Shown here in pieces: positions 1,589 to 54,073 of a stretch of 64,000 nt of DNA (its first letter is position 1; each line of letters starts with the position of its first letter). The notes under the pieces were generated by a model. The model was not told where the DNA came from. It ran no database searches and was given only the letters and a program-made list of their open reading frames with translations. The DNA is from Ginglymostoma cirratum (taxonomy: Eukaryota), in assembly GCA_024137785.1 (NCBI GenBank), contig JAHRHZ010000040.1, forward strand, positions 6,765,545-6,829,544, in the 5' to 3' direction. The position numbers were made by a program, and so were the translations under genes.

Positions 1589-1701
1589 TCCTTCCGTTTG
1601 TAATTTCAGTAGTAACTATTCTTGCCGTTGTCATCGTCATAATTGCAATGCTGTTCATCTGTCACTTTGTTAAGAAGAAGCAAGTATTGCCCAAGGTTTT
1701 G
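1589..1701 (+). CDS. IFNGR1: Interferon gamma receptor 1, transmembrane exon
   Basis: Polypyrimidine tract + AG at 1587-1588 and GTGAGT donor at 1702, phase 1 to 0. Reads xLPFVISVVTILAVVIVIIAMLFICHFVKKKQVLPKVL: TM helix, basic stop-transfer residues, and an LPKxL motif like the mammalian LPKS JAK1-binding site. Confidence 0.9.
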
Positions 1702-2199
1702 GTGAGTTTGCAGTTTTTTTCTGCTAGTGGAAAGGGCTATTTCCTATCTGTTTAAATGTAACAAGCAAAGATTACAGTGACAGAATATTATACATTGTGA
1801 ATTCGCCAATTTCAGATTTAATTAACAATTGTACAATGTCATAGTGTGTAACTAGTAATGTTTAGATATATTCATACTATGTCCACTAAAATTAGGCAAG
1901 GATAAACTACTTCAGAGCTAGCAAATTGTTGATGTATTAGCAAAGCATTTATATCACAGTAATTTCAATATAGCAAGATTAACAAACAGGTATAGAGTTT
2001 TAAAATTGGCTGAATTTGATTAATGAGGAACAAAGTTGTAGAATGCAGCAAGATGGCAATGCATTACTGAAGTGGGAATTCAATCCGCAGAGCATTTTTA
2101 CTCAAACATAAATAGAAATACATTTGAATGAAAGAGGTGTATTTGACATTTGTTACCCATCTCATTTAAATAAAACTAAGATTATAATCTAATTTCTAG

Positions 2200-2616
2200 G
2201 TTCATCGCATTATGGGTGAGAGGGGGAAAGCATACATGGATGTAAACATGGAATCTGATGAAAGTAACTTAAGTGAGCTGAAAGGATTGGAGAATGCATT
2301 TGCTGTTCCTAAAGTTGACCAGTGTGATGAGACACAAGAGGATTTGACCAAACCTCCTTCAGACATCTTTGTTGACCGAGTTAATACTGATGTGAATGAC
2401 AGTGAACCAGTAAATGCTGACTTGGATGATCCATATGCAGCTAAAATTCATATCAATGGCATAGACCAAAGATGTCATACTCAGGACAGTGTTGAAGTAG
2501 ACGACAATATTCTGGAGAAAACTTATGACTTGTGTCAGACTAATTCTGAGCCTGTGAAACAAATCTGTGCAGATAATTGGGGTTATGACAAACCTCAAGT
2601 ACTGTTTGCACTTTAA
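2200..2616 (+). CDS. IFNGR1: Interferon gamma receptor 1, last (cytoplasmic) exon
   Basis: TTTCTAG acceptor ends at 2199, in frame with the previous exon. VHRIMGERG...DNWGYDKPQVLFAL* matches the IFNGR1 STAT1 docking motif GYDKPH-VL. Confidence 0.9.
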   Translation, partial: VHRIMGERGKAYMDVNMESDESNLSELKGLENAFAVPKVDQCDETQEDLTKPPSDIFVDRVNTDVNDSEPVNADLDDPYAAKIHINGIDQRCHTQDSVEVDDNILEKTYDLCQTNSEPVKQICADNWGYDKPQVLFAL

Positions 2617-19062: not shown

Positions 19063-19235
19063 GTGAGTCGGGGGGGAAGGGAAAGGGAAAATGACAGGGA
19101 GTATGATGGTAAATAAAAAGGTGAGCAGCAGGTTAGCATATGTGCAGGAGGGTTTAAGTTCAAGGCAGACTATGAAAGAAGCAAAAAGGAAGGATAACTC
19201 AGCAGATATTATTAGAGATGTTGGAAATCATGAGG

Positions 19236-25768: not shown

Positions 25769-25838
25769 ATGGCACAGTTCCCAAATCAACCTTTGGTTCT
25801 ATTTTGTTTCATGCAACTAATTTGTCCACAAGTTTCTG
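25769..25838 (+). pseudogene. Locus A exon 1 (signal peptide)
   Basis: MAQFPNQPLVLFCFMQLICPQVS+g with a GTAAGT donor; phase 1 matches the next exon. Confidence 0.7.
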
Positions 25839-27225
25839 GTAAGTAAATGATGTGTCCTGCTCATGCATGTTCTGTAGAAATCCATAAGAACTCACTAGTG
25901 TGTGTTGTTAAAATGAGTTGTGAGTTTGAAACTGGTACCTGCTCAGAACAAAGTTAATTTTAACCTTGAGTCTCCCTCAGTTTGGCCCAACATTGCAGCA
26001 TTAGTTATGAACAGACCACAGACTTCATAGACAATTTCACCATAACTGTAAAGAGCAGTTTAGTTGCTAAAACCGTAGATCGGCATTATTTCTTTCTGCA
26101 GGAAGAATGGGGACAGTTATCTTAAAGGTGAATAATCCCATGTCTCTATCAATGAGAAAGCTGCCAAATCAAATGCTAATTATGACTCAAGTGTTCATCT
26201 GATGGGCTTCTCAGCTTATCAAGTGTCTTGCCTTTGCTGGCTTTCCAGGTGGGGAAATTACTGGGAGCTGGTGTATTTTGATAGATATCATTTATCATTC
26301 TGAGGCCCTCTTCATTTAAACTCTCCATCAACTCAATTTACTTAGCTTCTTGCTATTGCTTTCATTCAGACTATCCTATGTTGACTTGGTGAATTTTCTT
26401 GAACAGTGTTGCCATAAACTTGGCAAAATAATTACTCCTAAACCCGATAGAATACAACACTAATCTACATTTCTTTATGCAAAAACACACAGTCTTTTGA
26501 CCAACCATAAGGATATAATTCAGCACTTTACTAAGCAGCATATCCTTGTGAGTTTCGTCACTAATTCTCCGGCAAAGATTGGCATTTTATTTGTGAATGT
26601 TAAGCAATTCACAGGTAAATCACTGGCTAGACATGAATCAGACTTTATGGGAACTCTTGAAATATTAATCACATTTGCATGATTTCCTGACTTAATATGT
26701 TTAATGATGGTTAATTTTATCATTTGATCCTACCTGCTCAAAGAACACTTTGAGCATTTGTGACACTTCCATAACAATAGACATATTCTTACTGATCCCT
26801 ATTGTTAATATCTTGGCCCAGAATAACTATATTTTCAAACCAGTTTCTTTCCAATAAGTAGACCTTGTTACCTCATATTCTCATTAATGGCAAATATTTG
26901 GATGTATCATCATATTGCAGCCTAATTCACACTTGACCTAACACTCGAATATTGTTATTAGAATAACTGGCCAGTTTCATATAAGTTTTGTCTAAGGAAA
27001 TGTGATTCAGGGGCTTCTGTGATTCTCCTTCTGAAATAACACATATGGGCAGCTGTATCAACCTTGACAGTAAGTTGTGAATTTCTGATGATACCTTTTA
27101 CTGATCGCTGGGATTATATATTCTCTTTCATTTCTACTCTCATCTTCCTTGGTCCATTTTCGTTTTTTCTGTCAGAGTATAATTTGTAATCTTCCAGTTT
27201 GATAATGGTTATCAAATGCGCAGTC

Positions 27226-27235
27226 GGGGATTTCC
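27226..27235 (+). promoter_or_regulatory. NF-kB consensus site in locus A intron 1
   Basis: GGGGATTTCC, with ETS (ACTTCCTGT, 27392) and CRE-like (CACGTCA, 27415) motifs nearby. Confidence 0.4.
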
Positions 27236-27484
27236 AGACTCCTGAACGAATCTTTGATATGTCACGACCACAGTCTAGCACAATCTATGATCTGGAGCTC
27301 TGTGAAGCATTACTGCTCCCTCCATTCATGACCTTATCTGGATATGATTGACTTGCCCACATGAATTGCACTTTGACGAGAAATTCCTCAAACTTCCTGT
27401 GAGAGTTCCAAAAGCACGTCACAATGTACTTTGGTTCTTAATTTCACAAGTAAAGTGCACAAAATGATATCCCATCTTTTACTC

Positions 27485-27707
27485 AGAGATAGTAAGAACT
27501 GGCGGTGCTGGAGTCAGAGATAACACAGTGTGGAGCTGGAGGAACCCAGCAGGCCAGGCAGCATCAGAGGAGCAGGAAAGTTAACATTTCGGGTCGGGTC
27601 GGGACCCTTCTTCAGAAGAGAAGGGTCCCAACCCAAAATGTCAACTTTCCGGCTTCTCATCTGCTGCCTGGCCTGTTGTGTTTCTCCAGCTCCACACTGC
27701 GTTATCC
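27485..27707. mobile_element. Fold-back palindromic Penelope pLTR derivative (older subfamily)
   Basis: Inverted arms around CTTCAGAAGAGAAG, tail on the left arm only. TSD TATCC(C/T)ATCTTTTACT at 27468-27483 and 27703-27718. Confidence 0.85.
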
Positions 27708-27927
27708 TATCTTTTACTGTTCTGTGTTGCACAAAGACAAACGTGCTGCAGACAACCGTGATTGAACCCGGTTTATTTATGCTTCCCCAACTAAAGAGGG
27801 GAGTTGAGAGGGCAATAGAGCAAAATGCTTAACTCTGGCAACAAAACTGCAATCCATTAACATAGTAACGAGTTTATCATAATGTACATATGTAACCATT
27901 TCCTGCAAAAATTGACTGTCTGCAATG

Positions 27928-30515
27928 GAGATAAAAGGTACTGCAGATGCTGGAGAATCCAAGATAACAAGGCGTGGGGCTGGATGAACACAGCAGGCCA
28001 AGCAGCATCATAGGAGCAGGAAAACTTGACGTTTCAGGCCTAGACCCTTCATCAGAAATGGGGGAGGGGAAGAGGGTTCTGAAACAAATATGGAGAGAGG
28101 GAGAGGCGGATAGAGGATGGATAGAGGAGGGGATAGGTGGAGAGGAGGCAGACAAGTCGAAGAGGCGGGGATGGAGCCAGTAAAGGTGAGTGTAGGTGGG
28201 GGGGTAGGGAGGAGATAGGTCAGTCCAGGGAGGACGGACAGGTCAAGGGGGTGGGATGATGTTAGTAGATAGGAGATAGGGGTGGGGCTTGAGGTGGGAG
28301 GAGGGGAAAGGTGAGAGGAAAAACAGGTTAGGGAGGTGGAGTTGAGCTGGACTGGTTTTGGGATGCGGTTGGGGGAGGGGAGATTTTGAAGCTTGTGAAA
28401 TCCACATTGATGCCATTGGGCTGCAGGGTTCCCAGGCTGAATATGATTTGCTGTTCCTGCAGCCTTCGGGTGGCATCACTGTGGCATTGCGGGAGGCCCA
28501 GGATGGACATGTCGTCTGAGGAATGGGAGGGGGAGTTGAAATGGTTCGCGACTGGGAGGTGCAGTTGTTTGTTGCGAACTGAGTGCAGGTGTTCTGCAAA
28601 GCGGTCCCCAAGCCTCCGCTTGGTTTCCCCGATGTAGAGGAAGCCACAATGGGTACAGCGGATGCAGTATACCACATTGGCAGATGTGCAGGTGAACATC
28701 TGCCTGATGTGGAAAGTCTTCTTGGAGCCTGGGATTGGGGTGAGGGAGGAGGTGTGGGGGCAGGTGTAGCACTTCCTGCGGTTACAGGGAAAAGTGCCGG
28801 GTGTGGTGGGGCTGGAGGGGAGTGTGGAGCGGACAAGGGAGTCGCAGAGGGAGTGGTCTCTCCGGAAGGCAGATAAGGGTGGGGAGGGAAAAATGTCTTT
28901 GGTGGTGGGGTCTGATTGCAGATGGCGGAAGTGTCGGAGGATGATGCGTTTGATCCGGAGGTTGGTGGGGTGGTACGTGAGGACGAGGGGGATTCTTTTT
29001 TGGTTATTATTGTGGGGACGTGGCGTGAGAGATGTGTTACGGGAAATGCGGGAGACACGGTCGAGGGCGTTCTCGACCACTGTGGGGGGAAGTTGCGGTC
29101 CTTGAAGAATGAGGACATCTGAGATGTACGGGAGTGGAATGTCTCATCCTGGGAGCAGATGCGGCGGAGGCGAAGGAATTGGGAATAGGGGATGGCATTT
29201 TTGCAGGAAGGTGGGTGGGAGGAGGTGTATTCCAGGTAGCTGTGGGAGTCAGTGGACTTGAAATGGACATCGGTTTCTAGGTGGTTACCCGAGATGGAGA
29301 CAGAGAGGTCCAGAAAAGAGAGAGAAGTGTTGGAGATGGTCCAGGTGAACTTCAGGTTGGGGTGGAAGGTGTTGGTGAAGTGGATGAACTGTTCGAGCTC
29401 CTCGTGGAAGCACGAGGCGGCGCCGATGCAGTCATCAATGTAACAGAGGAAGAGGTGGGGTTTAGGGCCACTGTAGGTATGGAAGAGGGATTGTTCCACG
29501 TAGCCTACAAAGAGGCAGGCATAGCTTGGGCCCATGCGGGTACCCATGGCCACCCCCTTTGTCTGTAAGAAGAGGAGGAATTGAAAGAGAAGTTGTTGAG
29601 GGTGAGGACGAGTTCGGCTAAGCGGATGAGGGTGTCGGTGGAGGGGGATTGGTCAGTTCTGCGGGACAGGAAGAAGCGGAGGGCCTTTAGGCCATCTGCA
29701 TGGGGAATACAGGTGTATAGGGACTGGACATCCATAGTCAAAATGAGGTGTTGGGGACCGGGGAATTGGAAGTTCTGGAGGAGATGGAGGGCGTGGGTGG
29801 TGTCACGGACGTAGGTAGGGAGTTCCTGGACCAAGGGGGTGAAAATGGAGTCTAGGTAGGTGGAGATGAGTTCAGTGGGGCAGGAGCAGGCGACCAGGGC
29901 ATTCAGGTTTGTGGATTTTGGGAAGGAGATAGAAGCGGGCGGTGCAGGGTTGGGGAACGATGAGGTTGGAGGCGGTGGGTGGGAGGTCACCTGAGGTGAT
30001 GAGGTTGTGGATGGTTTGGGAGATGATGGTTTGGTGCTCGGGGGTGGGGTCATGATCCAGGGGGCGGTAGGAGGAGGTGTCAGAGAGTTGGCGCCTGGCC
30101 TCAGCAATGTCGAGGTCAGTGTGCCATACTACGACTGCCCCTCCCTTGTCTGTGGGTTTTATGGTGAGGTTGGGATTGGAGCAGAGGGAGTGGAGGGCTG
30201 CACGTTCTGCGGTGGAGAGGTTGGAGTGTTTAAGAGGGGTAGAGAGGTTGAGGCGATTGATGTCTCGACGGCAGTTGGAGATGAAGAGGTCGAGGGAGGG
30301 TAGGAGGCCTTGGGGTGGTGTCCTCTTCGACTTGTCTGCCTCCTCTCCACCTATCCCCTCCTCTATCCGCCTCCCCCTCTCTCCCTATTTATTTCAGAAC
30401 CCTCTTCCCCTCCCCCATTTCTGATGAAGGGTCTAGGCCCGAAACGTCAAGTTTTCCTGCTCCTATGATGCTGCTTGCCCTGCTGTGTTCATCCAGCCCC
30501 ACGCCTTGTTATCTC
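27928..30515 (-). mobile_element. Penelope-like retroelement (Neptune-type), 5'-truncated with an inverted pLTR
   Basis: RT motifs DKGGAVVV, TMDVQSLYT, AMGTRMGPSYA and YIDD; Cys-rich linker CNRRKCYTC; GIY-YIG NVVYCIRC...YIGETKR..RFAEH; several frameshifts. Inverted 3'-end copy at about 30322-30515. TSD TGTCTGCAATGGAG at 27917-27930 and 30518-30531. Confidence 0.95.
30417..30452 (+). ncRNA. Minimal type I hammerhead ribozyme motif in the inverted pLTR
   Basis: ATTT-CTGATGA-A-GGGT(CTAG)GCCC-GAAA-C-GTC-AAGT. ATTT/AAGT form helix I; predicted cleavage is after 30448. Confidence 0.82.
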
Positions 30516-31122
30516 TATGTCTGCAATGGAGGAAGGTTTAACCAAATTGCAAACTTGCTTTTTGATTATCGTGTAGTATGCAGGAAATGTTCCCCTGTAT
30601 GTGTTATCAAAGATTGAACTTTGTTCTTTTAAAAAGTTTAGTAAGCGCCCATTAAGTGAATAATGTGTAATTATATAGTTATATCTTAAATGAACTATCA
30701 ATAAGAAATTTTGCAGTTTTATATTGTGCTTCATGAGTAGATCTGCTACTTTAAAAGAGGTAACTAGAAAACTGTGAATAGTGTAAAAAGATATGAAAAC
30801 AAAATTTACTTGCAATCGTAAAGGCCAGCTTTATTGGGAAGTCAGAATGTATTGTTCCTGACCAGCCTCAGGGCTGCTGGGATTTGTTTCCCCAGAGCAT
30901 TTCAATGATCTAGAGCTGGCCCAGAGCCTAGTGCCTGTGGATCGAGTTCAGAAGCCAAAATGTCATTATGTAAAATGCAAACAAAGATTTACCATGTAAA
31001 TTGAATATGCGGGAAACAGCACATTTATAAATAATAAAAACAAATCAAATTTTGTATCAGTACAAGTATTTTGCTGCCAGAGATTTTTACAATCAAACAT
31101 AACAATTTTGTTCAATTTTCAG

Positions 31123-31240
31123 AAAGTATTGCACACCCACTGCAAGTGAATTTCAACTCTACCGACTTCTACAATGTTTTACAACGGCAGGAAGCCAATC
31201 ATCCCAGTAGGAGTATTGTTCACATGGTACAATACAAAAT
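31123..31240 (+). pseudogene. Locus A exon 2 (FNIII D1, first half)
   Basis: ESIAHPLQVNFNSTDFYNVLQRQEANHPSRSIVHMVQYKM with AG/GTAAGT boundaries. The conserved L-x-W Trp is Arg (CGG). Confidence 0.88.
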
Positions 31241-33124
31241 GTAAGTGTCTTTCAAGGTAAATATAACAACAAGAAAAGTACAATAAAATTATCATGAAGG
31301 TGACAGAGAGAAATGGAAGTAAAGACAGAGATAAATCAATAAACATAATAAAAGATTGTTTCAACTAAAAGAGAATCAGGGAGTGGCCAGAACTCTAAAG
31401 GTTAGAAAATAGAAATTTATTTAAGTGAGTTACATGTTACATGGTACGATTGTCCCAAAAATTAACATTGCTAAAAAAAAGGAATAGACTCATCAGGCCA
31501 GCTTTCAAGAAATACCAAAGTAAAGGGGATACATTCAGACTGTATAAAGGAGTGTGCAGATTGGTTGGAAAGTGGACTCAATTGGCAGAGATGTTGCCAT
31601 GGCAAATAAAAAGGTCTCCAGTTACATGTATTAATAAGAGATACCAGGGATAGATACTGTTAATGAGTACTGGAGAAATGTAGGAAGCAGAGTAACTTGC
31701 CGTGCATTTTAAAAAAGAAGCAAAATAGGCCAACACAAATAAAACCCCAAGAGCTAAAAAATTTCAGTTGCATTGCACCATTTCTAGCCGTGGAACAGAT
31801 GCCCTGTTGATATCCCCAGTAGAAGCTGCACCTTGAACTGATATCTGTAAAACTACAAACTGTTCTTTATTGACAATGGAACTCACAGCTGTTTACTAAA
31901 CAATTCTAACTGGTGTTAACCTAATATTGTACAGTATGACCTGTTGATCTCACGTGGAGGTTTCTGGATTGGAACAGGGTGAGGATGTATCGGGAGTTGG
32001 GAAGGCACATAGGCTGGCACATGCCATCATTGTCAATGTTCTTGGCACCATCAGCTACTATGGGCCATGTCCTCCAACCTAAACACGCTGAAAACCACCT
32101 CCTCTGTCAAGCTCGGGAGATGCAGATATCCTTGTCCCCTTCTAGATCTGGTTCTTAAGGCTTTCGTGTCTCCTGTTTCCACCCATACCCCCATCCATGT
32201 ATCTTACTTCCTGCAAACCTGAACCCCTACTGCCTTCCATGGTCTGCCACAATGCTGCTCGGGCCTTCTGCTGTGCATGGAGATCCTGAACAGTTTTGAG
32301 AAGGTGACTAAAATACCTGGCACCAAAATCATTCTGAATTGATGGGCAGACGTGTTTCCTGTTCTCACCTCAAGAAAACAGGCACAGAAATTCTGTGAGC
32401 CATGGTCTCACATACAAAAACTGGGTAAATGAATATTATGCTCCAGTTGTCTTCATTCAGCACTTATTTAGATGATCAAGATGTAATTTGAAAATTATTT
32501 GCATGGTAATAACCTGATAAAATGCACTCGGAAGGATTCAGAAGATAAAAGAACTTAGGGATCTGTCTGCTTATAAACCAATTTGATTGTGAAAAACCCT
32601 ATTGCTTGGTGAACTATCTTTCAAAGACAGGTCTTTAACATTCAAGAAATTAGTTTTGAGGAAAGACTGGAGGACTTCTGTCCTCTAAGCTTTAAAGGGA
32701 GTTGGCCATGGTAGACAGTTAAGAAATATGTATTCGGTAGTAAACTGTACGGAAAAGCATATGCTGAACACTAATTCAAACTGAATCATCACAACAGGAT
32801 AATAGGACACAGGTGAAAATTAATAAAAGATAAATTTAGGACTAATATCAGAAAGTTCTGAATATGAATTAAAAATAAAATGAACTTCAAATTGAGTAGC
32901 TGAGGAAATGTGTGTGAAGGAGCAGCACTATTATAATGTTTCGCTGGAAGGATGCAGTAATGTTGGTTTACAGCATTCATTATCCGCATTTATCTTGTGA
33001 ACTTGTAAATGATTTCAATCCAACTTTGTAACCTGTCAACCCGCTAATGATTCATTTGACATGTGCCATATTTTAATTGCTATTCAAGCACAGTCTAAAA
33101 CCAAAGTGAAATTGTCTATTGTAG

Positions 33125-33303
33125 GTATGGGGAGAAACAGTGGAATAATAAAACAGAATGCTGGAGAATAAGTCAGCCATTCTGTGACCTTACTCAAGAG
33201 ACAAGGCACTTTATGGAGCCATACTTTGCAAGAGTTCAAGCCCTTACAGCAAATGGCCACTCAAACTGGGTACATAGTGAAAGGTTTATTCCCTTCTGGG
33301 AAA
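33125..33303 (+). pseudogene. Locus A exon 3 (FNIII D1, second half)
   Basis: YGEKQWNNKTECWRISQPFCDLTQETRHFMEPYFARVQALTANGHSNWVHSERFIPFWE. The donor reads GGAAGT instead of GTAAGT. Confidence 0.92.
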
Positions 33304-33809
33304 GGAAGTATGTATGCATTACTGTGTCTTGAATTTTCCACTGAATGAAAAACGGTGAGTAAATGGCCTTCCTTCTCTGAATCCAACTTGTGATTTTGTA
33401 AAACAGGCAATGATCATGTGCAATCTGGAAAACTCCTGTCAAGGTAGTAAAGAAAAATGTAATAGGAAGTACCCAAAAGGATTCAGAAGGTAAAGCTTTG
33501 TGTTTGTCAGTCTCCTAGTACCCCAGTTAGACTGTAGAAATTCTTAACACTGATTGTACTATCTGTAATATTGGAGAAGTGTGTTTTTAATAAAGATTGT
33601 GGAAATTTTTCTTTGAGCCTTAAAAAGGAGTTGATCACGAATTGACATTATAGAGATAGATTAAGCAGCAAACTGTATGGTAAATTATGTACAGAAGACT
33701 TATAGGAATAACCGGATGTGTTTGACAAAGTTGTCTGCATCCAGCATCTCAATTCATTTTGGACCAGCTTCTTTGGCATCAACTAATATTCCATGGTAGA
33801 GACAGTAGA

Positions 33810-34970
33810 AGGATTGTAAGATAAAGGGAACCAGTAGTTGTAATATGTTTCAACTTGCAAAAGGTATTCAATAATGTACCACACAAAAAAAGTTACTTAA
33901 TAAGCTCAGAGTCCATGGTATTTGGGGTAGAATATTCACATGGATAGAGGATTGGCTAACCAATAGAAGACTGAGAGTTGGGATAGGGAGAGGGAGGGAT
34001 GGATTATCAGGATGGCAACTTGTGGAGAGCCACAGGGATCAATGCTGGGATCACATTATTTACAGTCTACATTAGTATCTTGGATAAAGGAAGTGAATGT
34101 CTTGTCAGGTTTGTGGATGACACAAAATTAGGTGGGAGGATGGCACATTGTACACAGAGGGAGGTAGATGTGTTAAGTGAGTGGAGCTAAAATTTGATAG
34201 ACAGAATATAATGTGGGAAAATGTGATGTTATGCTCTTTGGCAAGAAGAATATAGGAGCTGAATATTATTTAACTTCGGAAAGACTACAGAAAGTTATAA
34301 CAGAGGCATCTCAGGTCATTGTCCAGGAATCACAAAACACTAACATGCAAGTTCAGTAGGTTATAGGGAAGGCAAATGGAATGTAGTCCTTTATTTCAAT
34401 GGAAATGGAATATTAAGACAGGGAATTCTTGCTAAAACTATCCAAGGCAATAGTTAGACCACACCTGGAATACTGTGAACAGTTCCCTCACCATTGGAGG
34501 TAGTCCAGTCAAGATTCATTAGGTTGATCCTGGCTATAGAGGGATTTCCTTATGAGGAGACGTTGTGTAGGTAGTGCTAATACTCACTGGAGTTTAAAAC
34601 AAGGAGAAGTAACCTTATTGAAATATGTAAGATTCTTAGGGGACCTGGCAGAGTAGATGCAGAGATGTTGTTTCCCCGCTATGGAAGAGTCTGGAATCAG
34701 AGGTCATAATCTCAGAGTTAGCAGTCACCCATTTAAGACAGCAATTTCTTGTCTTAGAGGGTTGCGAATTCTTTACCATCGAGGACTGGAGAGGTTGAGT
34801 CATTAAGTATTTTCAAGGCTGAGGTGGATTTTGCTTATCAGTAAAGGGTTGTGGAAAAGGCAAGAGGGCAGAGTTGAAAATATCAGATCAACTATGATCT
34901 CATTGAATGGCAGAGCAGATTGATAGACCGAATGGCCTACTTTTGCTTCTATGTTTTATGGTCTTATTGT
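33810..34970 (+). mobile_element. Degenerate CR1 RT and 3' end in locus A intron 3
   Basis: FVDDTKLGG and HLEYC motifs, plus a CR1 tail. Confidence 0.8.
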
Positions 34971-35501
34971 TGTGTAACATAATGTAACATGAGACCAAAC
35001 ATAAAATAGGACCAAAAGCTTAGACTTTGATGTTGGTTTAAAGGAGCATTTTAAAGGAGGAGAGAGCAGTGGAGAGGCCAAGATGTTAATGGAGACTTTG
35101 GCAGCTAAAGGGATGGCCAGCAGTGGTCAAGCAATGAAAGTCAGAAATACATTACAGACTAAATTACAACAGTAGAGAAATTTTGGAGGGTGGAGGAGGT
35201 TGCAGATATAGGGAGATCTTGTGTGTCAGGAATGATGGGAGTTAGGTTCCATTATCAATGAATTGGATAATCTCAAATTTATGATGGAAGATGGGTGGCT
35301 GACTGGGGGATATTTATTAATGTTTCTTTCACTTATAAGTTAAGGGATAAAACTATAATAATTACAATAAACCAAGACAGAAATTATTGACTTAATAATT
35401 GTACACAAAAAATTGCTTTTTTGAATGATTTAAGATGTATTTAAACCATTCATATCAATACAAAATCCTCTTATTACTTTTGAATATTTTTGAAACTGTA
35501 G

Positions 35502-35674
35502 CAGCCATTAGTCCGCCAAAGATTAAACTCACACCCCAGTCAGGATCTATACAGGTGGAATTGTTTGCTCTGTGAACACCTTTCAGAAGGAAAAATGGCT
35601 CCTGGATTACCTTGGATAAAATTTATATCGACTTGGAATACCAAGTAGAAATTACAGGAAATCCAGTGGATCAT
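35502..35674 (+). pseudogene. Locus A exon 4 (FNIII D2, first half)
   Basis: TAISPPKIKLTPQSGSIQVELFAL*TPFRRKNGSWITLDKIYIDLEYQVEITGNPVDH, with TGA at 35573-35575. 173 nt, the same length as locus B exon 4. Confidence 0.9.
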
Positions 35675-36609
35675 GTAAGGTTAAAGCTGCTGTCTTTATG
35701 TTATTAATGCTCCATTAGTTCCTTTAAATGAAACACTATAGTTCTGGCCCTCTGTTGTGGGTGCCCATAGCTCTAACGTGAAACTGCTGAATGTAGAATC
35801 ACACTTTCTGATTTTTCACATTGTGACTTCCACTTGAGACAATATAATGAAGTAAAGGACTTCTTTTCTGTATACAGGGTTATATTGGCTAATATTAGAC
35901 ATAAGAGAAATACAGACCCTCTTTAATAGGAACAATTACAAGGAATGCAACTGCTATTTATAATAGAGAGAGGCACAAACAAAAACATGAAAAACAGAAA
36001 GTTGTCTTTGTAGCTTTGCATTTTTTCAGATTAGTTAATACATTTGGAAAATGGGACTATTTCTACATGGAATCAACGCCAGAAATTTGCATTCCCTGTA
36101 AAATTCCTTGATCATTTTCCCAATGTCTGCCTGTCTGCCTTGATCATCTGCAATTTTACAGTGGATCAGGTGACAGTCAGGTGTCAGCCTATCCACCATT
36201 ACCTTCATTGATGTTCTTAATAGGCCAGTTACCAATCAATTAAGGTTGTTTGCCACCCAGTCTCAGCTTTCAGGCCGAGGGCAGAATTCAGAGTGAAAAC
36301 AGAAAATGTCCCTACCCAGGACTCTTCCATTAAAAGCCTCCTTTCAACATTAGGCAGCATCTACAAGGTTGATCTCTCATGGATGCTGCCTCCTTCTCAC
36401 CCTTGGACTCTTTACAAACATCTGCACCGAGCTCTCTACTCACCTCCTCCCCTGGGTGACACCATGTAGAGACCCTTACACTTACCTAGTCCTTCACTCC
36501 AGTCTTGGATGACACATCAAGAAAGGAAGTTCTTTTTCCTTAATTCATTCCTAGCATTTGGGCTTTGTTGCCCAGTGGCAGCATTTATTGCCCATCTCTA
36601 TTTGCCTCA

Positions 36610-37115
36610 AGAATATAGAAACATAGAAAATAGGTGCAGGAGTAGGCCATTTGGCCCTTCGAGCCTGCACCACCATTCAATACAATCATGGCTGATCATG
36701 CAATCTCAGTATTCCATTCCGGTCCTCTGTCCATACCCCTTGATCCCTTTAGCCACAAGGCCATGTCCAGCTCCCCCTTGAATATCAAGAAAGGACTGGC
36801 CCCAATGGCTTCCTGTGAGAGAGAATTCCACAGGTTCACAATTCCCTGAGTGAAGAAATTCTTCCTCATTTCAGTCCTAAATGGCTTACCCCTTATTCTT
36901 AGACTGTGACCACTTGTTCTGGATTTCCCCAACATTGGGGACATTCTTCCTGTATCGAGCCAGTCTAATCCCATCAGGATTTTATATGTTTCTGTGCGAT
37001 CCCCCTCATTCTTCTAAATTCTAGCAAATACAAGCCCAGTTGATCCAATCTTTCCTCAAATGACAGTCCTGCTATCCTAGGAATCAGTCTGGTGAACCTT
37101 CACTGGACTTCCTCA
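36610..37115 (-). mobile_element. CR1 3' end
   Basis: ORF 36696-36974 reads GHSLRIRGKPFRTEMRKNFFTQ...LWNSL. Confidence 0.85.
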
Positions 37116-37119
37116 ATAT

Positions 37120-39590
37120 GGACCAAATATGTAGACAATTCGCAGAGATGTGTAAAAACAACAAGTGTCATTACACCAGGGATTTCAACATCCCCTATAT
37201 TAAATAGGATAGTGTAAAGGGTTTAGATGGGGCGGATTTCTTGAAATACATTCAAGTTAGCTTTTGATGTCAAAATGTAGAACGTCCAACAAGGGATGGT
37301 TCAGTGCTAGACCTAATTGTGGCAAGTAAAGGTGGACGGCTGTTCAAGGTGGCAGTGGGAGATCAGTGGCTGATAGCAAACACAACACTACAAATTTTAG
37401 TTTGTTATGGAAAGAAAATGATCTGCAACAAAGGGTTTTGGATTGGGAGAAAAGCAGATTTTGTTAAATGCTGCAGAATATGGCTGGGAGCAGCTACTTA
37501 TGGAAAAATCCATGGCACAACAGTTGAAGTGATTGTCAAGTACAGGCCCAACATGTTCCTACTTGGGTGAAATACAGAAGCCACAAGCCAGGAGAACTCT
37601 AGATGTCTAGGAGTGTTCAGGATGGATAAAAAAGAGAAGAGAGGCTTTTGACAGGTACAAATGGAGCAAATTAACAGAGCCCCCCGGTCAAGTACAGAAA
37701 ATGCAGAGAGGATCTTATGAAAGCAATTAGGAGAGAAAAGATGGGGCATGAAAAAACACTGGTGACTAAAATTAGGGAGAATACCAAGATATTTTACAAA
37801 TATATTAACAAGAAGAGGACAACCAGGGAAAGAGTAGGGACCAAGGGGCCAATCTGAGTGTGGAGCCGGATGACATTGTGAAACAAGTTTAACACATCTG
37901 TCTTCACACAAGAGAAGGAGGATGTAGGTACAGAATTCAGGGGAAGGAATTGTAATGTTGTTGACATGGGAGTTAAAAGGTATTGGATGTGTTGACATGC
38001 TTAAAAACATGGACAAATCCCCAGGTCTAAATGAGTTGTATCTCAGGCTGCTGTGGGAGGCTTGAGAGGAAATTACAGGGCACTGACACAGATTTTAAAT
38101 CCTCTCTGGCCACAGGGGAGGTACTAGAGGACTGGAGGGCAACACATTTAGGTCCACTTTTCAAGAGGGGGTATAGCAATAAATCAGGGATTTGTAGACC
38201 AGTGAGTTTCACATCAGTGGTAACAAAACATTTGGAGAAAACTCTGAAGGAGAGAATTAATTTCCACTTGGAGAGGTGATGTTTGATCACGGATAGCCAG
38301 CATGGCTTTGTCAGAGGGAGGTCATGTCTAACAAATTTGATTGAATTTTTCAAGGAGGTGGTCAGATGTGTAAAAGAGGGTAGTGCGGTAGGAGTAGTTT
38401 ATATGGAATACAGTAAGACCTTTCACAAAATCCTACATGGGAGACTGATAGAGAGGGTAAAAGTACACCCAGGGCAACTGGCAAGATAGATCCAAACTTG
38501 TGGGAGACAGGGGATGGCTGGAGAAGGCTATTTGTGTAACTGGAGATTAGTGTCCAGGGTCAGTGCTTTCTCCGTTATTGTTCCTGATTTCTATAAGGAT
38601 ATAAATGAGAATGTGGTGGGGTGGGGGATGATAATAAGGTTACAAGAACATATAGCTAGGTTGGTCAAATTGGCAGCTCAGTTGCAGGAGGTATTTAACC
38701 CCATAAAAGGTGAAGTTATGCACTTTGGAAGATGTAGCAAGACAAGGGAGTACTCAATGAATGACAGGGCACTAAGAAGCTCAAAGGAGTAGAGGGATAT
38801 TGTGGTGCTAGTCCACAGACCTCTGAAAGTGGCAGGACAGGTTAATAGTGTATTTAAAAAGGCATATGAGGCACTTGCCTTTAGCAGTTATGGAATAGAT
38901 TATCAGAGCAGGGAGGTTATGTTCAAGCTGTATATAACATTAGTTGGGCTACAGCTGGAGTATTATGGGTTAAAATTGTATCAGAGGGTTTAGGCCCGAA
39001 ACGTCAAGTTTTCCTGCTCCTATGATGCTGCTTGACCTGCTGTGTTCATCCAGCCCCATGCTTGTTAGCTGGAGTATTATGTGTGGTTCTGGTCACTACA
39101 CTATGTGAAGATGTGATTGCATTGGAGATGGTGAGAGGAGATTCATCAAGATGTTGCCTGAGATTGAACAGTTCGGGTATGAAGGGAGGCTGGATAAACT
39201 CGAGATGTTTTCTTTACAGCAAAGAAGCCTGAGGGAGGACCTGATTGAGGTGTATAAGATTGTGAGGGGCATTGATGGGGTGCATAGGAAATCACTGTTC
39301 TCCATGGTTGAAAGATCAATAATGAGGAGTAGAATTTTAAAGTGAAAGTCAGGGGGTTTAGAGGAAAAATTTCTTCACCCAGTGGGTAGCAAAAATCTGG
39401 AAAGCACTGCCTGAGAGTAGCAGAGGTGAAAAACCTTACAACATTTAGATAGTACTTGAAAGAGCACTTGAAGTGTCATAACATTCAAGTCTAAAGGCCA
39501 ATCGCTGGCATGTGGGATTGTTGTAATTAGATCAGTCCAGACTTGATGGGCTGAAGGGCCGCTTCTGTGCTGTTTGATTCTATGACTTTA
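37120..39590 (+). mobile_element. Degenerate CR1 ORF2 in locus A intron 4
   Basis: RPVSFTSVV, SQHGFVRGRSCLTNLIEFF and LREDLIEVYKI motifs. Confidence 0.85.
38968..39066 (+). mobile_element. Truncated Penelope pLTR derivative inserted in CR1
   Basis: TSD AGCTGGAGTATTATG at 38953-38967 and 39067-39081. The hammerhead 3' half follows ~18 unrelated nt. Confidence 0.85.
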
Positions 39591-39920
39591 TGCATGTCAA
39601 TGGACAGTTTTGATTCTCTCTTGTATGAGATAGTCATTCACTTGAACTTGTATCAGTTAAATATTATTTGACACTTGTCAGCTGGATATTGCCCAGGCCT
39701 TGCAGCATATGAACATAGACTTCTTCAGTTGCTGTAAAAGATTGAGACCAGGCTAATTGTCCAACCACTAAGTGGGGAATGGTGCCCAGATTGGAATCAA
39801 AAGAAGAAAGATGAAGAAGTTAATAGTGCAAAAAGATGGAGCAATAATTTAGACAATTTTTAACAAATATGTCAACTGATTTTCCTAAGAAGTAATAATT
39901 CCTTGTTCATCATTTTACAG

Positions 39921-40070
39921 AGACCTGAATCACGCAGAACAACAAGTACAACAATATCTATCCACAATCTAAAACTCAGAACAACTTACTGCATGCATGC
40001 TCGAATACAGATACCTTTATTCATTAAATCAGTAAATATGGTAGAGAAAAATGTGCAACAACATTTGATG
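39921..40070 (+). pseudogene. Locus A exon 5 (FNIII D2, second half)
   Basis: RPESRRTTSTTISIHNLKLRTTYCMHARIQIPLFIKS. Adding 1 nt near 40031 gives xKYGREKCATTFD+g and a phase-1 GTAAGG donor. Confidence 0.85.
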
Positions 40071-40334
40071 GTAAGGCAAAGTGACCTGAGTAGAACTACT
40101 TGTTCTGTATTCTTTCATGGGATGTGGGTGTCACTGGCAAGGCCAGCATTTGTTGCCCATCCCTAATTGCCCTGGAGCTTAGTGGCTTTCTAACTAGTTA
40201 AGAGCCAACCACATATCTAGTGGGTCAGGAACCATACATAGGCCAGACCAGGTAGGAATGGCAGATTGCCTTCCCTTGAGCTGTTTAGTGAACCAAATGG
40301 GTTTTCAAAGTAAATGATAGTAGTTGTTATCGAC

Positions 40335-40775
40335 AATATTCTCAAGTTTATCCAGCTTCTCTTCATACCTAAACTGCTCAATCCCCGGTAACATCCTGAT
40401 GAATCTCCTCTCACCCTCTCCAATGCAATCACATCCTTCCTATAGTGTAGCAGCCAGAACTGCACACAGTACTCCAGCTGTCGCCCAACTAACGCTATGT
40501 ACAACTTCAACTTAACCTCTCTTAACTCTTATAATCTATTCCACTACTGATAAAGGCAAATGCCCCATATGCCACCTCAAATACAGTACTAACTGGTCCT
40601 GCTCCCTTCAGGGTTCTGTGGGCAAACACCCAAGATCCCTCTGTTCCTCTGAGCTTCCTATTGTCCTGCCATTCATTGAACACTCCCTTGTCTTGTTACT
40701 TCTTCCAAAGTGCATCACCTCACACTTTTCAGGGTTATAATACAATTTGACCAACTTGGCTATATCTTCCTGTGA
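40335..40775 (-). mobile_element. CR1 fragment nested in a SINE
   Basis: ORF 40217-40510 reads LYIALVGRQLEYCVQFW. Confidence 0.8.
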
Positions 40776-43583
40776 CTTAGCTTCACTTCCAAATTATGAA
40801 TTGAAATTATTAAAGTTCCAACAGTTGCTATGAAGGGATTTAAACCTATGGCCTACAGACCATTACAAGCTACTGATTCAGTGATATTTGCCACTATGCC
40901 ACCATCACCCTCAGACTCTCAAATGTTAAACTAAACATCAGTTTTGAAACACCAGGAGCAACGCTTCCATTCAAAGTTTGCCGGTAATAGAACAGCACAG
41001 CACACAAACGGGCCTTTTGACCCATCAAACTTAATGTTAATCTTTCCTTCCTAAAGTATTCTACTGCAATTGCTCCCTTTTTTCCAATTTTGCCAGTGGG
41101 AAGGTCTTGATTCATGTTTGGCCAGGTTCCTATTGCACAAATTGTGGCCAAGCAATTCAAACACAGGGAGAATCACAGCCAAGGTGTCCGCTCCCATTAT
41201 TCACAAAAACATTGTAATGATTATTGATTGGGAACATGAATCCAAAGTACATTTACTTTCCTTTTCTAGTTCATGCAATAGCGAGGCTAACTGTAATGTT
41301 CCCTACTCAATCCTGATTGAGAATGCTTAACTGGTTTCCACATAGGATTGGTTCAAAACTAGGTTATTCTTCCCTCCAAACAAAGTGTAAGAAATAATTA
41401 CTACTGTACTCATTCATGTCATAGAAATGCTGCTAAAAGTTTGAAATTAATTATTTTAGCCAAGTCTTACAGTCATTGCCACTTGAATGAAAAATAAAGC
41501 ATTTATTATTTGCAAAGGTGCTAAATATGTCCAAATGCCATATAAATACACCTTGAGTTAGGCCTGCAGCCATTTAATGCTGGTAAATGGGACTAGATTA
41601 ATTTAAGGTATCTGGTCGACATGGATGAATTGGACTGAAGGGTCTGTTTCCTGCTGTATGACTGTATGACTATTTTACACGATAGCACTAAATGTAAATA
41701 AAAAGGACAAAAAATAATGGACACTGTGATTTTCCATACTTGTGTCCATCCTTCCAGGCTAATATTTGGGAAATGTGTCCATTAAAGTCATGAAATCATT
41801 AAACCAACAGCACCTGGTGATAAGATAGTAGAAGCATACACTTTGGCTTGAGGAATTTCAAGAGAAGAGTTGATATGTCAATAGAATCCTGACAAAACTA
41901 TTATGATTAACTACATTGTACAGTAAAAATTAAAGCATAGTTAAGAATAGGTTTACTAAAAAATGAGTTTACAAATTTTCACAGCAATCCTCGCAATAAT
42001 AATGAAATCTTTTCTGGCACGTTATGATTCCAAACCACTTGATGTTAATTTTTTGTTGTGCAATTGGACAACAAAATGTTGGTGTTCATTTATACCACTA
42101 ATACATGATTTTTGCTGAGCTTCCACCAAGGTTATCTTGAGAGATTGAGAAATTCTACATGCTTTATGAAACAAACGATCCTTTTCATTGTCCTGTCTCT
42201 TATAATACAGTGAATGACACAGAAGTGAGCTGTAATTTAAGCTGTAATGTTTTTTCTCCACAGAGGTCGAGTGATAACATACATTGAAATAGGAAGATGA
42301 TTTAGAAGTAAATTGTTTAAATGTGCTTTAAACAACTTACAAACAAATGAACAAAAGAATAAATCAACTGGAAAACTGCTTACAAATCCCTAGTGGTTAC
42401 CAAGAAAGGACTGACAAAAGACAAACATTGCCAACAGATAGAAACATAAGTTCAAATTTAATTAAATTCAATTGTTTTTCAAAAAAGTGCAATTAGTTTT
42501 TGACAAAGTATTTGTTTTGAAACCATATTTAAAGATGATTATTTTAGCTGTATGCTACTAATGTAGCATACATAGGTCTTTCATCAATCCAGTCATTCGT
42601 AAACACAACCTGTAAGATGAATGCAACGTAATAAAACAAAATTTGTGACATTATTCCCCCGAAGCTTTATTCATTTACAGACACTCGCTGTTGTTAAACT
42701 TCAGTAAATTGAATGAGATACTGAACAATTTGCTCTCATGGTGATGTTTCAGAGGTTTCCCTTCAAATCCACTCCCTCTGTTCTAAGCCACTGACTACTC
42801 TGTTTATCTTTTCATGGATCTGGGTCCCAATCGTTTTTCCATAATCACCTCCAAGTCAAATTCCTACTTTTGCTTTTCGCAGTTTTATTTGCATGTTCTC
42901 CCAGGATCCAAGCTGCCATATGCTGCACCTACAAGAGAACATATGACCACATGACATAGGAGCAGAGGAAGTCCATTCAGCCCATGAAGTCTACTCTGTC
43001 CTTCAATGAGATTGTGGCTGATCTGATAATCCTTAGCTCCACTTTCCTGCCTTTTCCCCAGTACCCTTATAATTGTTTTGCATGATATCAAGCACCATTC
43101 TGGCATCAGTCTCAATACAGAGTAACTCCACCTGATGAAAATCCAGTGTGCTTATAACCAAAGGAAGTGCTTCCAGGCTGTAGGGATTCTATGATTCTAT
43201 GATTGGAGTATTACTGTTTTAGTTTGCCAAAGCCATGCATAACCTTGGAAATTCTTGACAAATTTCTCTTCCATTTTCCTCTTGCATCTACTATCTCTTA
43301 AGAGTCCTGGACTGAATGCACGTGTTCCTACTGAGTAATGTGTTGTATCCTAGTGTGTCAATGTGTATATAGTCTCACTAATCTCTTGCCTTTATGGCAG
43401 AGTGCGGTGGTAAGTTGGCCTTGCACAGTCCAGAACCTCATTTGCTCCTCTTTGATTCCACTTCCAAAGATTGACTTACTTTGTTGATCTCCATCCTTGA
43501 TTTTTTTAGACCTATTTCTTTCCAAATGATTTCCTTTTGTCTTTGTTTCTGTGGTGACCTAGGAGCAACTGATCTGCAGTATT

Positions 43584-43729
43584 AGAGATAAAAGGTACTG
43601 CAGATGCTGGAGAATCCGAGATAACAAGCATGGGGCTGGATGAACACAGCAGGTCAAGCAGCATCATAGGAGCAGGAAAACTTGACGTTTCGGGCCTCAA
43701 CCCTTCATCAGAAAATTTTCTGATGCTTG
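43584..43729 (-). mobile_element. Penelope pLTR derivative with a collapsed second palindrome arm
   Basis: One full arm with tail, then AAAATTTTCTGATG fused to CTTGT. TSD TGATCTGCAGTATT at 43570-43583 and 43730-43743. Confidence 0.88.
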
Positions 43730-43767
43730 TGATCTGCAGTATTGCTTGACAATCCAAATTGACAACA

Positions 43768-43781
43768 GCGCCCCCTGCTGG
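43768..43781 (-). promoter_or_regulatory. Candidate CTCF site (reverse)
   Basis: Minus strand CCAGCAGGGGGCGC is a full consensus core, and neighbouring CpGs are retained. Confidence 0.7.
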
Positions 43782-44199
43782 ACGTTCGTTGCACTTGTAG
43801 TGTTACCTTGACCTGCACGTTGAACATACAAATATGAACAATGATGATGATTCCTGCTCTTTCATCGGGCTTTCATAAGGGTAATCTCGCCATATCGAGG
43901 TCTAAGTGTGTGACTGAATCAGAGGGATTAATCTTCTAAATATTTGTGTGATTTTGGGCTCTGTCCTCAGCCAGAATGACATTTTGGGCTGAATTTGACA
44001 GGAAATCAGCAAAGTGGCAAGTTTCATGGGAGGTTTCTTTCTGTGAACCTGAACAAGAATTCTCATCCTCTTCCCTGAAACCTGCCTCATTAGATATGTG
44101 CATGCCACGATGGTGCCCCACTCGCCATATCTTCCTTCTCAGCACAGACAAAAGTATTGGACACTGCCTAGACCTTGTGGCACTGAAGCCATCTTTAAA

Positions 44200-47600: not shown

Positions 47601-47975
47601 GGAGCCAATGGCTTAGTGGTATTATCAATCGATTATTAATCCAGAAATTGAACTAATGTCCTCAGGACCCAGGTTCAAACCCTGCCTTGGCAGATGGTGG
47701 AATTTGAATTCAATAAAGAATTTGAGATTTAAGGGTCTAATGATGACCATAAAAACATTGTCAATTGTCGGGGGGGGGGGGGTGGGAAAAAGACTTAGCT
47801 GGTTCATTAATGCCCTTTAGGGAAGGAAACTGCCATTCTTACCTGGTTTGGCCTGCATGTGACTCCAGATCCACTGCAATATGGTTGACTCTCAACTATC
47901 CTCTGGGCAATTAAAGATGGACAATAAATGCAGGCCTAGCCAAAGATGCCTTGATTCCATGAGTAATTTTTTTAA
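47601..47975 (+). mobile_element. tRNA-derived SINE (related copies near 13815, 40110 and 57420-57770 on -)
   Basis: A box TGGCTTAGTGG and B box GGTTCAAACCC, with a shared body. Confidence 0.7.
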
Positions 47976-49217: not shown

Positions 49218-49284
49218 ATGGCAGTACAAGTGTCCCACATCTTTTTGTGGTTCTTACAAATGTTGATTCTATTCAATGGCACAG
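49218..49284 (+). CDS. Locus B class II cytokine receptor exon 1 (signal peptide)
   Basis: MAVQVSHIFLWFLQMLILFNGT+g; good Kozak context (AGGATGG); GTAGGT donor, phase 1. Confidence 0.75.
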
Positions 49285-51853: not shown

Positions 51854-51981
51854 GTATGTATTTTAACAAGATTATCCAAATTTTGTAGCAAAAGAAATGA
51901 TTTCTGTTTCAATCATTTGTAAAATAGTTATAGCAGTATTAACGAAGAATGAAAAATAAATGCTAAATTCCTTTATTACAG

Positions 51982-53141: not shown

Positions 53142-53288
53142 ATACGTTTGGAAAATCTGAGAACTTATATTACTAACAACAAAACTTTTGAGATCCATCA
53201 CTTAAGTCCTGGAACAACCTACTGTATTTCTGTTCAAACAACGGTTCCATTATACAGTAAGATTGGTAAACCAAGTAAAGAAGTGTGA
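53142..53288 (+). CDS. Locus B exon 5 (FNIII D2b), ending at a premature TGA
   Basis: IRLENLRTYITNNKTFEIHHLSPGTTYCISVQTTVPLYSKIGKPSKEV*. A GTGAGT donor is still present at 53300. Confidence 0.9.
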   Translation: MRLENLRTYITNNKTFEIHHLSPGTTYCISVQTTVPLYSKIGKPSKEV

Positions 53289-53398
53289 GACACTGACCAG
53301 TGAGTCGTACAGTTTGTTTAACTCTTTCAATACAGGTATTTCAGTAATATCTAACATGCATTAACTGACTGTTAATTTAACTATGCTTTAATCCACAG

Positions 53399-54073
53399 GG
53401 CCAAAAACTAGAATAATGCACTCAGTGATAACCTGCTCAGCATGTGGGGCACTAATCCTGGTTATACTTTCGACTTATACTTTAAGTACTCTATGCCCCT
53501 AAAACACAATTACCCGCAATGTTGACAAACTGGAATAGAAAAGAACCAGAAATTGCTGTGTTTTTACCTCAAATTATTGAATCAACAAATATTGATAAAT
53601 GGGAACTTACAGAAAACTCAAAATATCCGAGACTTTCACTGTTACAAAATAGAACTGCAGCACATGCACAGCATTGTAAAAAATACATCAACATTGAATC
53701 TCCAGGTAGATTCAGAACCAGAGATTTTGATCAGAGCTTTATGCATCAGGATACCATTATATTTTATCAGTACCTTGAGCAGCCTCGATTTATTTGTTCT
53801 CAAAATGCACAGTTAGACCTAGAATCTGACACCTTGTTCTGCATAGACCAGCAAGAAGAGAACATCAGGTTGCAATGGATGTCAGCAGATTGCTGTCAAT
53901 ATCAATTCTGCTGCCAAAACAAAGAGGAATTCGAAGTTCTGGAAGCAGAATCTTTTCAAAAACCAACAGAGATCTCTGCACCTGGATATCCAGACTATAT
54001 CAATGAGGACTTTTGTGAAGATCCAATTTTGAAGACCTGGGGACTGATCATCCAACAAATAGATATAGTTTGA
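53399..54073 (+). pseudogene. Locus B fused TM + cytoplasmic exon (IL20RA-like tail), frameshifted as assembled
   Basis: CACAG acceptor, then PKTRIMHSVITCSACGALILVILSTYTLSTLCP* (TAA at 53500). The shifted frame reads PKTQLPAML into the 184-aa ORF containing YLEQ and ending WGLIIQQIDIV. Confidence 0.8.

Follow-up and report, generated by a model that had tools for sequence, protein, structure and literature searches.

In mammals, IL-22 is bound and neutralised by IL-22BP (PMC8634938), which is encoded by IL22RA2, a gene that stands in the linkage group IFNGR1-IL22RA2-IL20RA (PMC5332411). Human IL-22BP (PDB 3g9v), fish CRFB9 and the RefSeq 'IL22RA2-like' proteins of skates and sharks make up this type, which combines a signal peptide and two FNIII domains with the absence of a transmembrane (TM) segment. 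A 2025 survey dates IL-22RA1/2 to bony fish only (PMC12652433). Another class II R1 chain of fishes and amphibians, IFN-upsilon receptor 1 (IFNUR1/CRFB12), is absent from therians; it is reported at the CLIC2-FAAH2 locus in platypus (PMC8863823) and carries YCANG and YELR motifs (PMC13466502).

We analysed a window of 64,000 nucleotides from the shark Ginglymostoma cirratum (assembly GCA_024137785.1, contig JAHRHZ010000040.1, positions 6,765,545 to 6,829,544). The same-strand gene order is IFNGR1 - gene A (IL22RA2) - gene B - IL20RA (gene C), so that the mammalian-type, one-strand order IFNGR1-IL22RA2-IL20RA invoked by an earlier reading of this DNA (the original prediction) holds here, with gene B lying between A and IL20RA (Table 1). 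The window contains the 3' end of IFNGR1: a protein bearing an IFNGR1_D2 domain (P0093) matches same-strand exons 17 kb upstream of the window, and the last exon contains a YDKP motif that we take to be a STAT1 site. IL20RA lies about 43 kb beyond the window end (G000:C40, about 6,872,600-6,891,050), with exons 2 to 7 intact.

Table 1. Features of the locus, in window positions, and database relatives of gene B (asterisk, stop codon)
Feature	Position	Strand	Remarks
IFNGR1 3' end	1589..2616	+	ORF; TM exon ~1589-1701, last exon 2200-2616, terminus WGYDKPQVLFAL*
Gene A (IL22RA2 orthologue) exon 1	25769..25838	+	signal peptide, phase-1 donor; aligns with N-terminus of skate P0009
Gene A exon 2	31123..31240	+	W45R, CGG at 31185
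Gene A exon 3	33125..33303	+	donor GGAAGT (GT>GG) at 33304
Gene A exon 4	35502..35674	+	TGA at 35573-35575; run X2 has the stop, relative X13 lacks it
Gene A exon 5	39921..40070	+	frameshift (net -1) within 40022-40028; final residues CATTFD + G, then phase-1 GTAAGG donor at 40071
Probable gene A exon 6	42264..42380	+	predicted; G/AG GTC GAG TGA = EVE*, stop 42272-42274; 3' UTR follows, AATAAA at 42358; 3' end approximate
Gene B exon 1	49218..49284	+	signal peptide; matches N-terminus of P0004
Gene B exons 2-4	51730-51853, 51982-52157, 52880-53052	+	no lesion
Gene B exon 5	53142..53299	+	2-nt deletion near 53283 giving TGA 53286-53288, before last D2 cysteine, 11 nt before last junction
Gene B exon 6	53399..54073	+	single exon for TM and cytoplasmic tail; 4-nt deletion near 53473, 1-nt deletion near 53490
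Gene B orthologues and probable orthologues			P0004-P0008, P0022, P0164, P0041, P0037, P0177, P0169; RefSeq 'IL20RA-like / IL22RA2 / IFNAR2-like / uncharacterized'

Judged by its sequence, gene A is this shark's IL22RA2/IL-22BP orthologue and a pseudogene. It shares with that type its position after IFNGR1, its clade, the signal peptide, the two FNIII domains and the lack of a TM segment, and differs from it in being broken. The five exons and four lesions of the original prediction are all present in the assembled sequence, with exon phases 1-2-1-0; the predicted 1-nt deletion near 40031 survives as a net -1 frameshift, placed slightly upstream, and the phase-1 donor that exon 5 reaches after repair is real. 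Reading through that donor leads to a TGA at 40080-40082. At the exon 2 arginine, the models of three skates, basking shark and whale shark have tryptophan. Exon 3 is 85-90% identical to three shark IL22RA2-like proteins and matches PF01108, and its QWxNK..CW, EPY and RFxPxWET motifs, from which an IL22RA2 likeness had been proposed, match human IL-22BP in orthologue alignments. The skate orthologue has both Tissue_fac and Interfer-bind domains, and the read-through translation of gene A aligns over 229 aa. Human IL-22BP is the best PDB match of the skate (5e-40, against 4e-33 for IL20RA) and basking-shark (2e-41 against 3e-31) orthologues. The open frame is broken by the GG donor, the TGA and the frameshift, and predicted splice outcomes end at about 65-145 aa; at most, a signal peptide and domain 1 (about 125-145 aa) could now be made.

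In a maximum-likelihood tree of 67 ectodomains, assembled with the named IFNUR1 sequences outside the set, gene A grouped with six elasmobranch proteins (100/100) and this clade was sister to 14 bony-vertebrate IL22RA2-type proteins (97/92), which places the pseudogene inside the IL22RA2 clade as predicted, not outside the IL22RA2/IL20RA group. Gene B joined A/IL22RA2 (98/93) and gene C grouped with IL20RA. We consider it very probable that A was the IL-22BP gene, secreted before it broke, that B is a separate anchored sister and that the retained donor is an ancestral relic. Gene A would then be a unitary pseudogene, the only IL22RA2 copy of this shark, and its living form presumably encoded a secreted IL-22 decoy of two fibronectin domains. 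Its exon 5 donor, of the kind that membrane relatives have ahead of their TM exon, would have led to a tiny last exon of about three residues and a stop, and would descend from a membrane-anchored ancestor common to A and B, not from a membrane form of A. The A/B duplication would predate the split of sharks and bony vertebrates.

Gene B itself appears to be a TM sister of IL22RA2 that is apparently unnamed, a placement for which the tree support was accompanied by borderline AU tests. Its relatives in sharks, rays, chimaera, caecilians and a tailed frog go under mixed RefSeq names; they share with B the TM segment, a membrane-proximal PxxLP motif and, in most, a YIN..EDP...WGL tail motif, and are intact, in contrast to the broken gene here. 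We know of no ligand for them or for B. A profile of the chondrichthyan B tail found two caecilian tails (5e-10 and 1e-6) and one tailed-frog tail (2e-3) and, among the tails searched, missed those of IL20RA and IL22RA1 (best E 0.12). The ectodomains link chondrichthyan B to amphibian and paddlefish proteins weakly (84/22 and 83/65). In two caecilians, a soluble protein of the IL22RA2 type occurs alongside a TM protein of the B type, and a B-type sister was not found in teleosts or amniotes in the searches made. The alignment-based homologue search returned five proteins, so the range of the family is a lower bound. Early jawed vertebrates probably had a fourth R1 chain of the IL-20 subfamily, an anchored sister to IL-22BP that cartilaginous fishes and amphibians, and perhaps paddlefish, retain. 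In the ESM Atlas, the top cluster was identical for shark and caecilian B, an unnamed 'IL20RA-like' group, which we note as a lead only.

Other identities for gene B were considered and rejected. IL20RA resembles B in cluster, strand, ectodomain fold and a C-terminal WxLxxQ-type end, yet forms a separate clade in the free tree, where the AU test on B+IL20RA is borderline (p=0.053), and has its TM and tail in separate exons where B has one; homology between the two tails was undetected by profile search, and the locus has a separate intact IL20RA downstream. IFNUR1 is ruled out for A or B by locus and motifs, B having neither the CLIC2-FAAH2 setting nor YCANG/YELR. Nor are the A exons the 5' part of the gene whose TM exon starts at 53399, since B has exons 1-5 of its own.

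The best explanation of the gene B lesions is that the gene can no longer signal in this species, though it is still spliced. In runs X1 and X2, spliced contigs agree with the assembly from 53399 onwards (0 differences, 0 gaps), exon-6 deletions included; this read support covers the exon-6 deletions only, and the 2-nt deletion was placed by comparison with P0004-P0008. Together the three small deletions around the TM segment put the TM and tail out of frame with the ectodomain, and signalling would have been lost in this way. It is unlikely that B is alive here as a secreted or tail-less decoy replacing the lost IL-22BP. As assembled, its spliced message predicts a 228-aa product with a signal peptide and both domains. 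A stop within 50 nt of the last exon junction generally escapes nonsense-mediated decay, and that of gene B, by its position, is expected to do so. The first 681 nt are lesion-free, all three deletions are clustered in 110 nt out of 1370 (post hoc p about 0.02), soluble B isoform models exist in a ray, and an IL-22-like gene is intact in the genome. However, the stop deletes the invariant last cysteine and three more domain 2 residues, the 2-nt deletion that creates it rests on the assembly, and the lack of ectodomain lesions has p=0.13. Moreover, the now useless tail frame, deletions aside, is open for 195 aa and shows no acceleration, with 15 changes against 21 in bamboo shark (ectodomain, 13 in each), so that the lesions may be merely recent. 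The composite scenario, in which a fourth R1 chain existed, IL-22BP died while IL-22 was kept, and B was truncated at its ectodomain end into a new secreted decoy, is equally doubtful; if true, the origin of IL-22BP would have been replayed in the adjoining gene.

More improbable is a tandem A/B pair specific to chondrichthyans in which A became secondarily soluble, a form of the lineage-specific expansion offered in the original prediction. The two genes adjoin, exon 3 is 55% identical between them, and A+B as one clade is not formally rejected by the AU test (p=0.083). Against this, the free tree joins A to bony-vertebrate IL22RA2, and the gene B tails are homologous to amphibian tails; we accordingly disfavour the expansion.

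The orthologues speak to how gene A ended. A TM-like window occurs in 0/8 elasmobranch A-clade records (maximum hydropathy 0.75) and in 8/8 B records (1.68-3.24). All three skate orthologues stop in exon 5, ending CVTTF* in the same register as gar CVITL*, bird CTVLQ* and caecilian CTAPL*. The five shark models are partial or aberrant predictions, two lacking exon 5, so the absence of a TM segment there is weak evidence; the three containing exon 5 terminate without one. The model of bamboo shark has the terminus DDVE* and that of sevengill EDI*. Shark forms extend beyond the cysteine+4 stop common to skates and bony vertebrates, retaining the phase-1 intron and, probably, a micro last exon. 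Most likely, on sequence grounds, the retained donor splices to a micro-exon at 42264, whose EVE* resembles the DVE* of bamboo shark, although its acceptor ranks only 6th of 575 by a rough score. A contig of X2 ends at 42292, the position predicted for a fork from exon 5, but one of X1 ends at 42283 instead, and no read joining exon 5 to 42264 was seen among the read pieces examined.

These results run against the earlier proposal of a membrane-anchored gene in the IL22RA2 position; the locus does contain an anchored IL22RA2-like receptor, which is the neighbouring gene B. That sharks had such a gene in place of A, its TM exon disappearing once it had died, is a shade less credible still than the tandem pair. 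The phase-1 donor does sit where TM-type receptors have it, the CATTxxD register recurs in lungfish IL20RA, and DNA past 42264 gives a weak score with the TM exon of IL20RA (12/500 shuffles as high; one of three comparisons). The same DNA, however, does not match the TM exon of B (219/500 shuffles) or that of IFNGR1 (399/500), and TM-free shark models count against the proposal. So do the exon 5 stops of all three skates, an outcome that the original prediction had named as refuting it. Hydropathy scans of 40070-49200 gave no convincing TM exon; of the 13 and 7 weak windows, none combined a good acceptor with the features of a TM exon. The donor appears to lead to a three-codon stop exon, which fits the secreted history preferred above.

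One of the four gene A lesions, the TGA, was compared with reads, and it held: a run X2 contig spanning 34900-35968 has 0 differences over 1069 bases, TGA included, so that the stop is no assembly artefact, provided X2 does not come from the source sample itself. The W>R change, GG donor and frameshift rest on the assembly. Gene A has CTG-TGA where the relative in run X13 has CCA CGC and the bamboo-shark model Pro-Gln, for which CCG-CGA would be the simplest ancestor; the CpG decay first suggested for this site is therefore plausible. That gene A is functional and its lesions reflect assembly errors or a rare haplotype, as two broken-looking neighbours and three assembly-based lesions might suggest, is the least credible reading of all, given the TGA in X2, the gene B exon-6 deletions in spliced contigs from two studies, the absence of stops in IL20RA, the IL-22-like gene and the IL22RA1-like exons when read, and eight derived residue changes in A vs one in the whale-shark model.

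A pseudogene like A is ordinary by itself. IL-22BP probably goes back to a tandem duplication whose other product is the anchored sister, the old intron being retained in sharks, and a full skate IL-22BP conflicts with the bony-fish-only dating of the 2025 survey (PMC12652433). In elephant shark, the RefSeq entry 'IL22RA2' corresponds to the TM sister and not to the decoy, and its annotation should be corrected. An orphan R1 chain present in both sharks and amphibians offers a direct test for missing IL-10-family ligands, and a vertebrate with IL-22 and IL22RA1 but without intact IL-22BP is a natural knockout; the aberrant A models of other sharks hint at wider loss. A literature search, with most subscription journals outside it, gave no paper on shark IL-22BP loss or a TM sister, and IL22/IL20 terms were not found in the main and supplement text of the elephant-shark genome paper or in PMC6238376. 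Genome searches listed at least 4 and at least 7 matches, and no second intact IL22RA2 was among them; those listed for skate IL-22BP fell on at least four loci, namely A, B, C and the IL22RA1-like gene. In raw RNA run X22, coverage was too thin for use, with about one read on gene A exons and one or two on gene B.

Gene A, the broken gene next to IFNGR1, is a unitary pseudogene of soluble IL-22BP (IL22RA2), real but ordinary. All five exons and four lesions of the original prediction (a W>R change at 31185, a GG donor at 33304, a TGA at 35573-35575 and a 1-nt frameshift) are present in the sequence, with the exon 5 frameshift lying at 40022-40028 rather than near 40031, and with X placed at the breaks gene A yields a 229-residue alignment to skate IL-22BP. 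A search with exon 3 retrieved three candidate proteins, every one named IL22RA2-like. Using the sevengill protein as query, we listed 150 representatives, and 135 of 167 proteins passed the ectodomain filter for a quick tree; the IQ-TREE set comprised 67 rows hand-picked across clades, many of them unnamed, with human IL22RA2 and IFNUR1 not knowingly included and the aberrant or short whale-shark and horn-shark models omitted. In this tree, gene A and six elasmobranch proteins formed a clade (branch supports 100/100) sister to 14 bony-vertebrate proteins (97/92), among them sequences annotated as IL22RA2 from gar, coelacanth, two caecilians and a bird, placing gene A inside the IL22RA2 clade. 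The top solved-structure match for two gene A orthologues was human IL-22BP. An AU test did not reject a clade of gene A with its neighbour, gene B (p=0.083), and no second copy of gene A appeared among the matches listed in genome searches.

The source genome measures 4.36 Gb, and the records nearest to the window's proteins come from carpet sharks (bamboo, whale and zebra shark). Compared with the IFNGR1-IL22RA2-IL20RA linkage stated in the available text of PMC5332411, the shark locus holds one extra gene. IFNGR1-type ectodomain exons lie 17 kb upstream of the window. Exons 2-7 of gene C contain no stop and end in the C-terminus QFQKHWRLQVQT, while exon 1 was not located beyond the window end. 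Intron 1 of gene A houses one retroelement copy with reverse-transcriptase and endonuclease-like frames, and other copies include LINE-like pieces; the families are putatively Penelope-like and CR1-like.

Positions of the receptor genes, repeats and ligand-side genes (bare positions are those of the window; C40, C21, C25 and C28 are contigs of the source genome, G000)
Feature	Position	Strand	Remarks
IFNGR1 3' end	to 2616	+	first in order
Assembly gap (N)	7386-7786		between inverted copies of a short repeat
Retroelement copy	18102-21060	+	
Gene A	25769-40070, after IFNGR1	+	second in order
Retroelement copy	27930-30516	-	
Retroelement copy	33800-34970		
Retroelement copy	36620-39590		
Gene B	49218-54073	+	third in order
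Gene C (IL20RA)	about 43 kb beyond window end; G000:C40 about 6,872,600-6,891,050	+	fourth in order; loci L009-L011
IL-22-like gene	G000:C21:22099314-22100952	-	loci L022/L024; five exons, phase 0, intact open 182-aa frame
IL22RA1-like gene	G000:C25 about 2,133,270-2,142,610	-	loci L034-L035; no stop within matched exons
IL-10-family exon	G000:C28:22124911-22125072	+	locus L021; PF00726 match

Reads were compared over 34900-54500 in four of 24 listed runs, and the resulting pieces bear on one of the four lesions of gene A, the TGA: run X2 provides a contig spanning 34900-35968 with zero differences from the window, which makes the TGA genuine in X2. At this site a relative (run X13, about 96-97% identity) has CCA CGC and the bamboo-shark model has Pro-Gln, which fits the suggested CpG decay of CCG-CGA to CTG-TGA. 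Unrepaired, the plausible splice outcomes of gene A terminate after about 65-145 residues. Over 142 sites, gene A carries 8 derived residue changes versus 1 in the whale-shark model; the corresponding comparison with the bamboo-shark model, itself perhaps decayed, gives 7 versus 13.

The phase-1 donor of exon 5 had suggested that gene A was membrane-anchored before its death. Its relatives argue against this: none of eight A-clade records has a transmembrane segment (TM), and the intact orthologues of three skates are complete 229-aa IL-22BP proteins whose terminal CVTTF-stop aligns in register with the ends of the gar, bird and caecilian proteins. Sharks differ from skates at this point, with TTFDDVE in bamboo shark and TTSEDI in sevengill. 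In gene A, joining exon 5 to an acceptor at 42264 gives TTFDEVE-stop, with AATAAA downstream at 42358, and read-through of the donor meets a stop within four codons; whichever end was used, the predicted product was secreted. Judged from the sequence, this odd donor most likely splices into a stop exon, and the best reading is that it survives from a TM-type gene layout; the shark end may be ancestral or may have arisen by reversion of a stop. An intronic X2 contig terminates at 42292, the fork predicted, on an assumed 31-mer word length, if an exon-5-like end joins at 42264; exon 1 joined there would predict the identical contig end, and a contig of run X1 terminates at 42283 instead. Since X2 depth is 71 on exon 5 versus about 13 in introns, and a fork at exon 5 (39948) does not match the normal exon-4 donor, residual gene A transcripts are probably mis-spliced.

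Gene B is an anchored sister receptor, apparently without a name and probably ancient in origin; it is disabled here as well, and is of more interest than the gene A pseudogene itself. A search with its tail retrieved five proteins from sharks, 442-546 aa long and annotated as IL20RA-like, IFNAR2-like or uncharacterized; in the 67-row tree rays and an elephant-shark protein joined them (98/95). That protein, P0041 (XP_007891231), bears the RefSeq name IL22RA2, yet it carries a TM and is a member of family B; the matches retrieved included no soluble IL22RA2 from a chimaera. A hydrophobic TM-like segment occurs in all eight family B records. Family B together with amphibian and paddlefish TM proteins was sister to IL22RA2 (whole group 98/93, weak within), and an AU test of B with IL20RA was borderline (p=0.053). 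Evidence independent of the ectodomain for kinship between chondrichthyan B and the amphibian proteins came from a profile of seven chondrichthyan tails, which, run against the remaining tails of a set of 98, matched a ray and a second chimaera record, two caecilians (5e-10 and 1e-6) and the tailed frog (2e-3); in that set nothing else scored better than 0.12, and the paddlefish tail was missed. Identification of gene B as IFNUR1 was ruled out by locus and motifs, as described in the available portions of PMC8863823 and PMC13466502. Neither the loss of IL-22BP in sharks nor family B was described in the literature searched, although other fish-immunology journals may have named the latter. The family B gene of Narcine bancroftii (P0016, P0163 and P0164) has two TM-less isoform models with the RefSeq name IL22RA2-like.

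The TM and tail of gene B lie in a single exon, with deletions of 2, 4 and 1 nt clustered around the TM. The gene is still spliced: contigs of two studies match from the exon-6 acceptor onward with zero differences, confirming the 4-nt and 1-nt deletions, while the 2-nt deletion is known from the assembly. As assembled, gene B encodes a 228-aa ectodomain without its last cysteine; if the 2-nt deletion is an error, it encodes a tail-less membrane protein, and in either form it is predicted to be unable to signal. A minority reading is that gene B serves as a replacement decoy for the lost IL-22BP. Since residue counts show release in neither part of the gene, recent pseudogenisation is the simpler reading.

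Wider loss of IL22RA2 in sharks is possible. All five shark models (P0011, P0010, P0001, P0002 and P0003) are incomplete or odd, whereas the three skate models are whole: the whale-shark model has exon 3 out of frame, the bamboo-shark model begins at an internal Met, the horn-shark model skips half of exon 4, the basking-shark model lacks exon 5 and the sevengill model lacks exons 1-2. The stop and frameshift of gene A are absent from the whale- and bamboo-shark models. The oddities of the shark models may reflect repeated loss, or no more than faulty gene prediction where expression is low.

According to the available text of PMC8634938, mammalian IL-22BP, a homologue without a TM, is secreted and outcompetes the receptor; by analogy, IL-22 in this shark would act without the IL-22BP brake. 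Exon 3 of the IL-22-like gene matched IL-22 structures best, albeit weakly (E 0.06), and a single exon of an IL-10-family gene was also observed on a separate contig.
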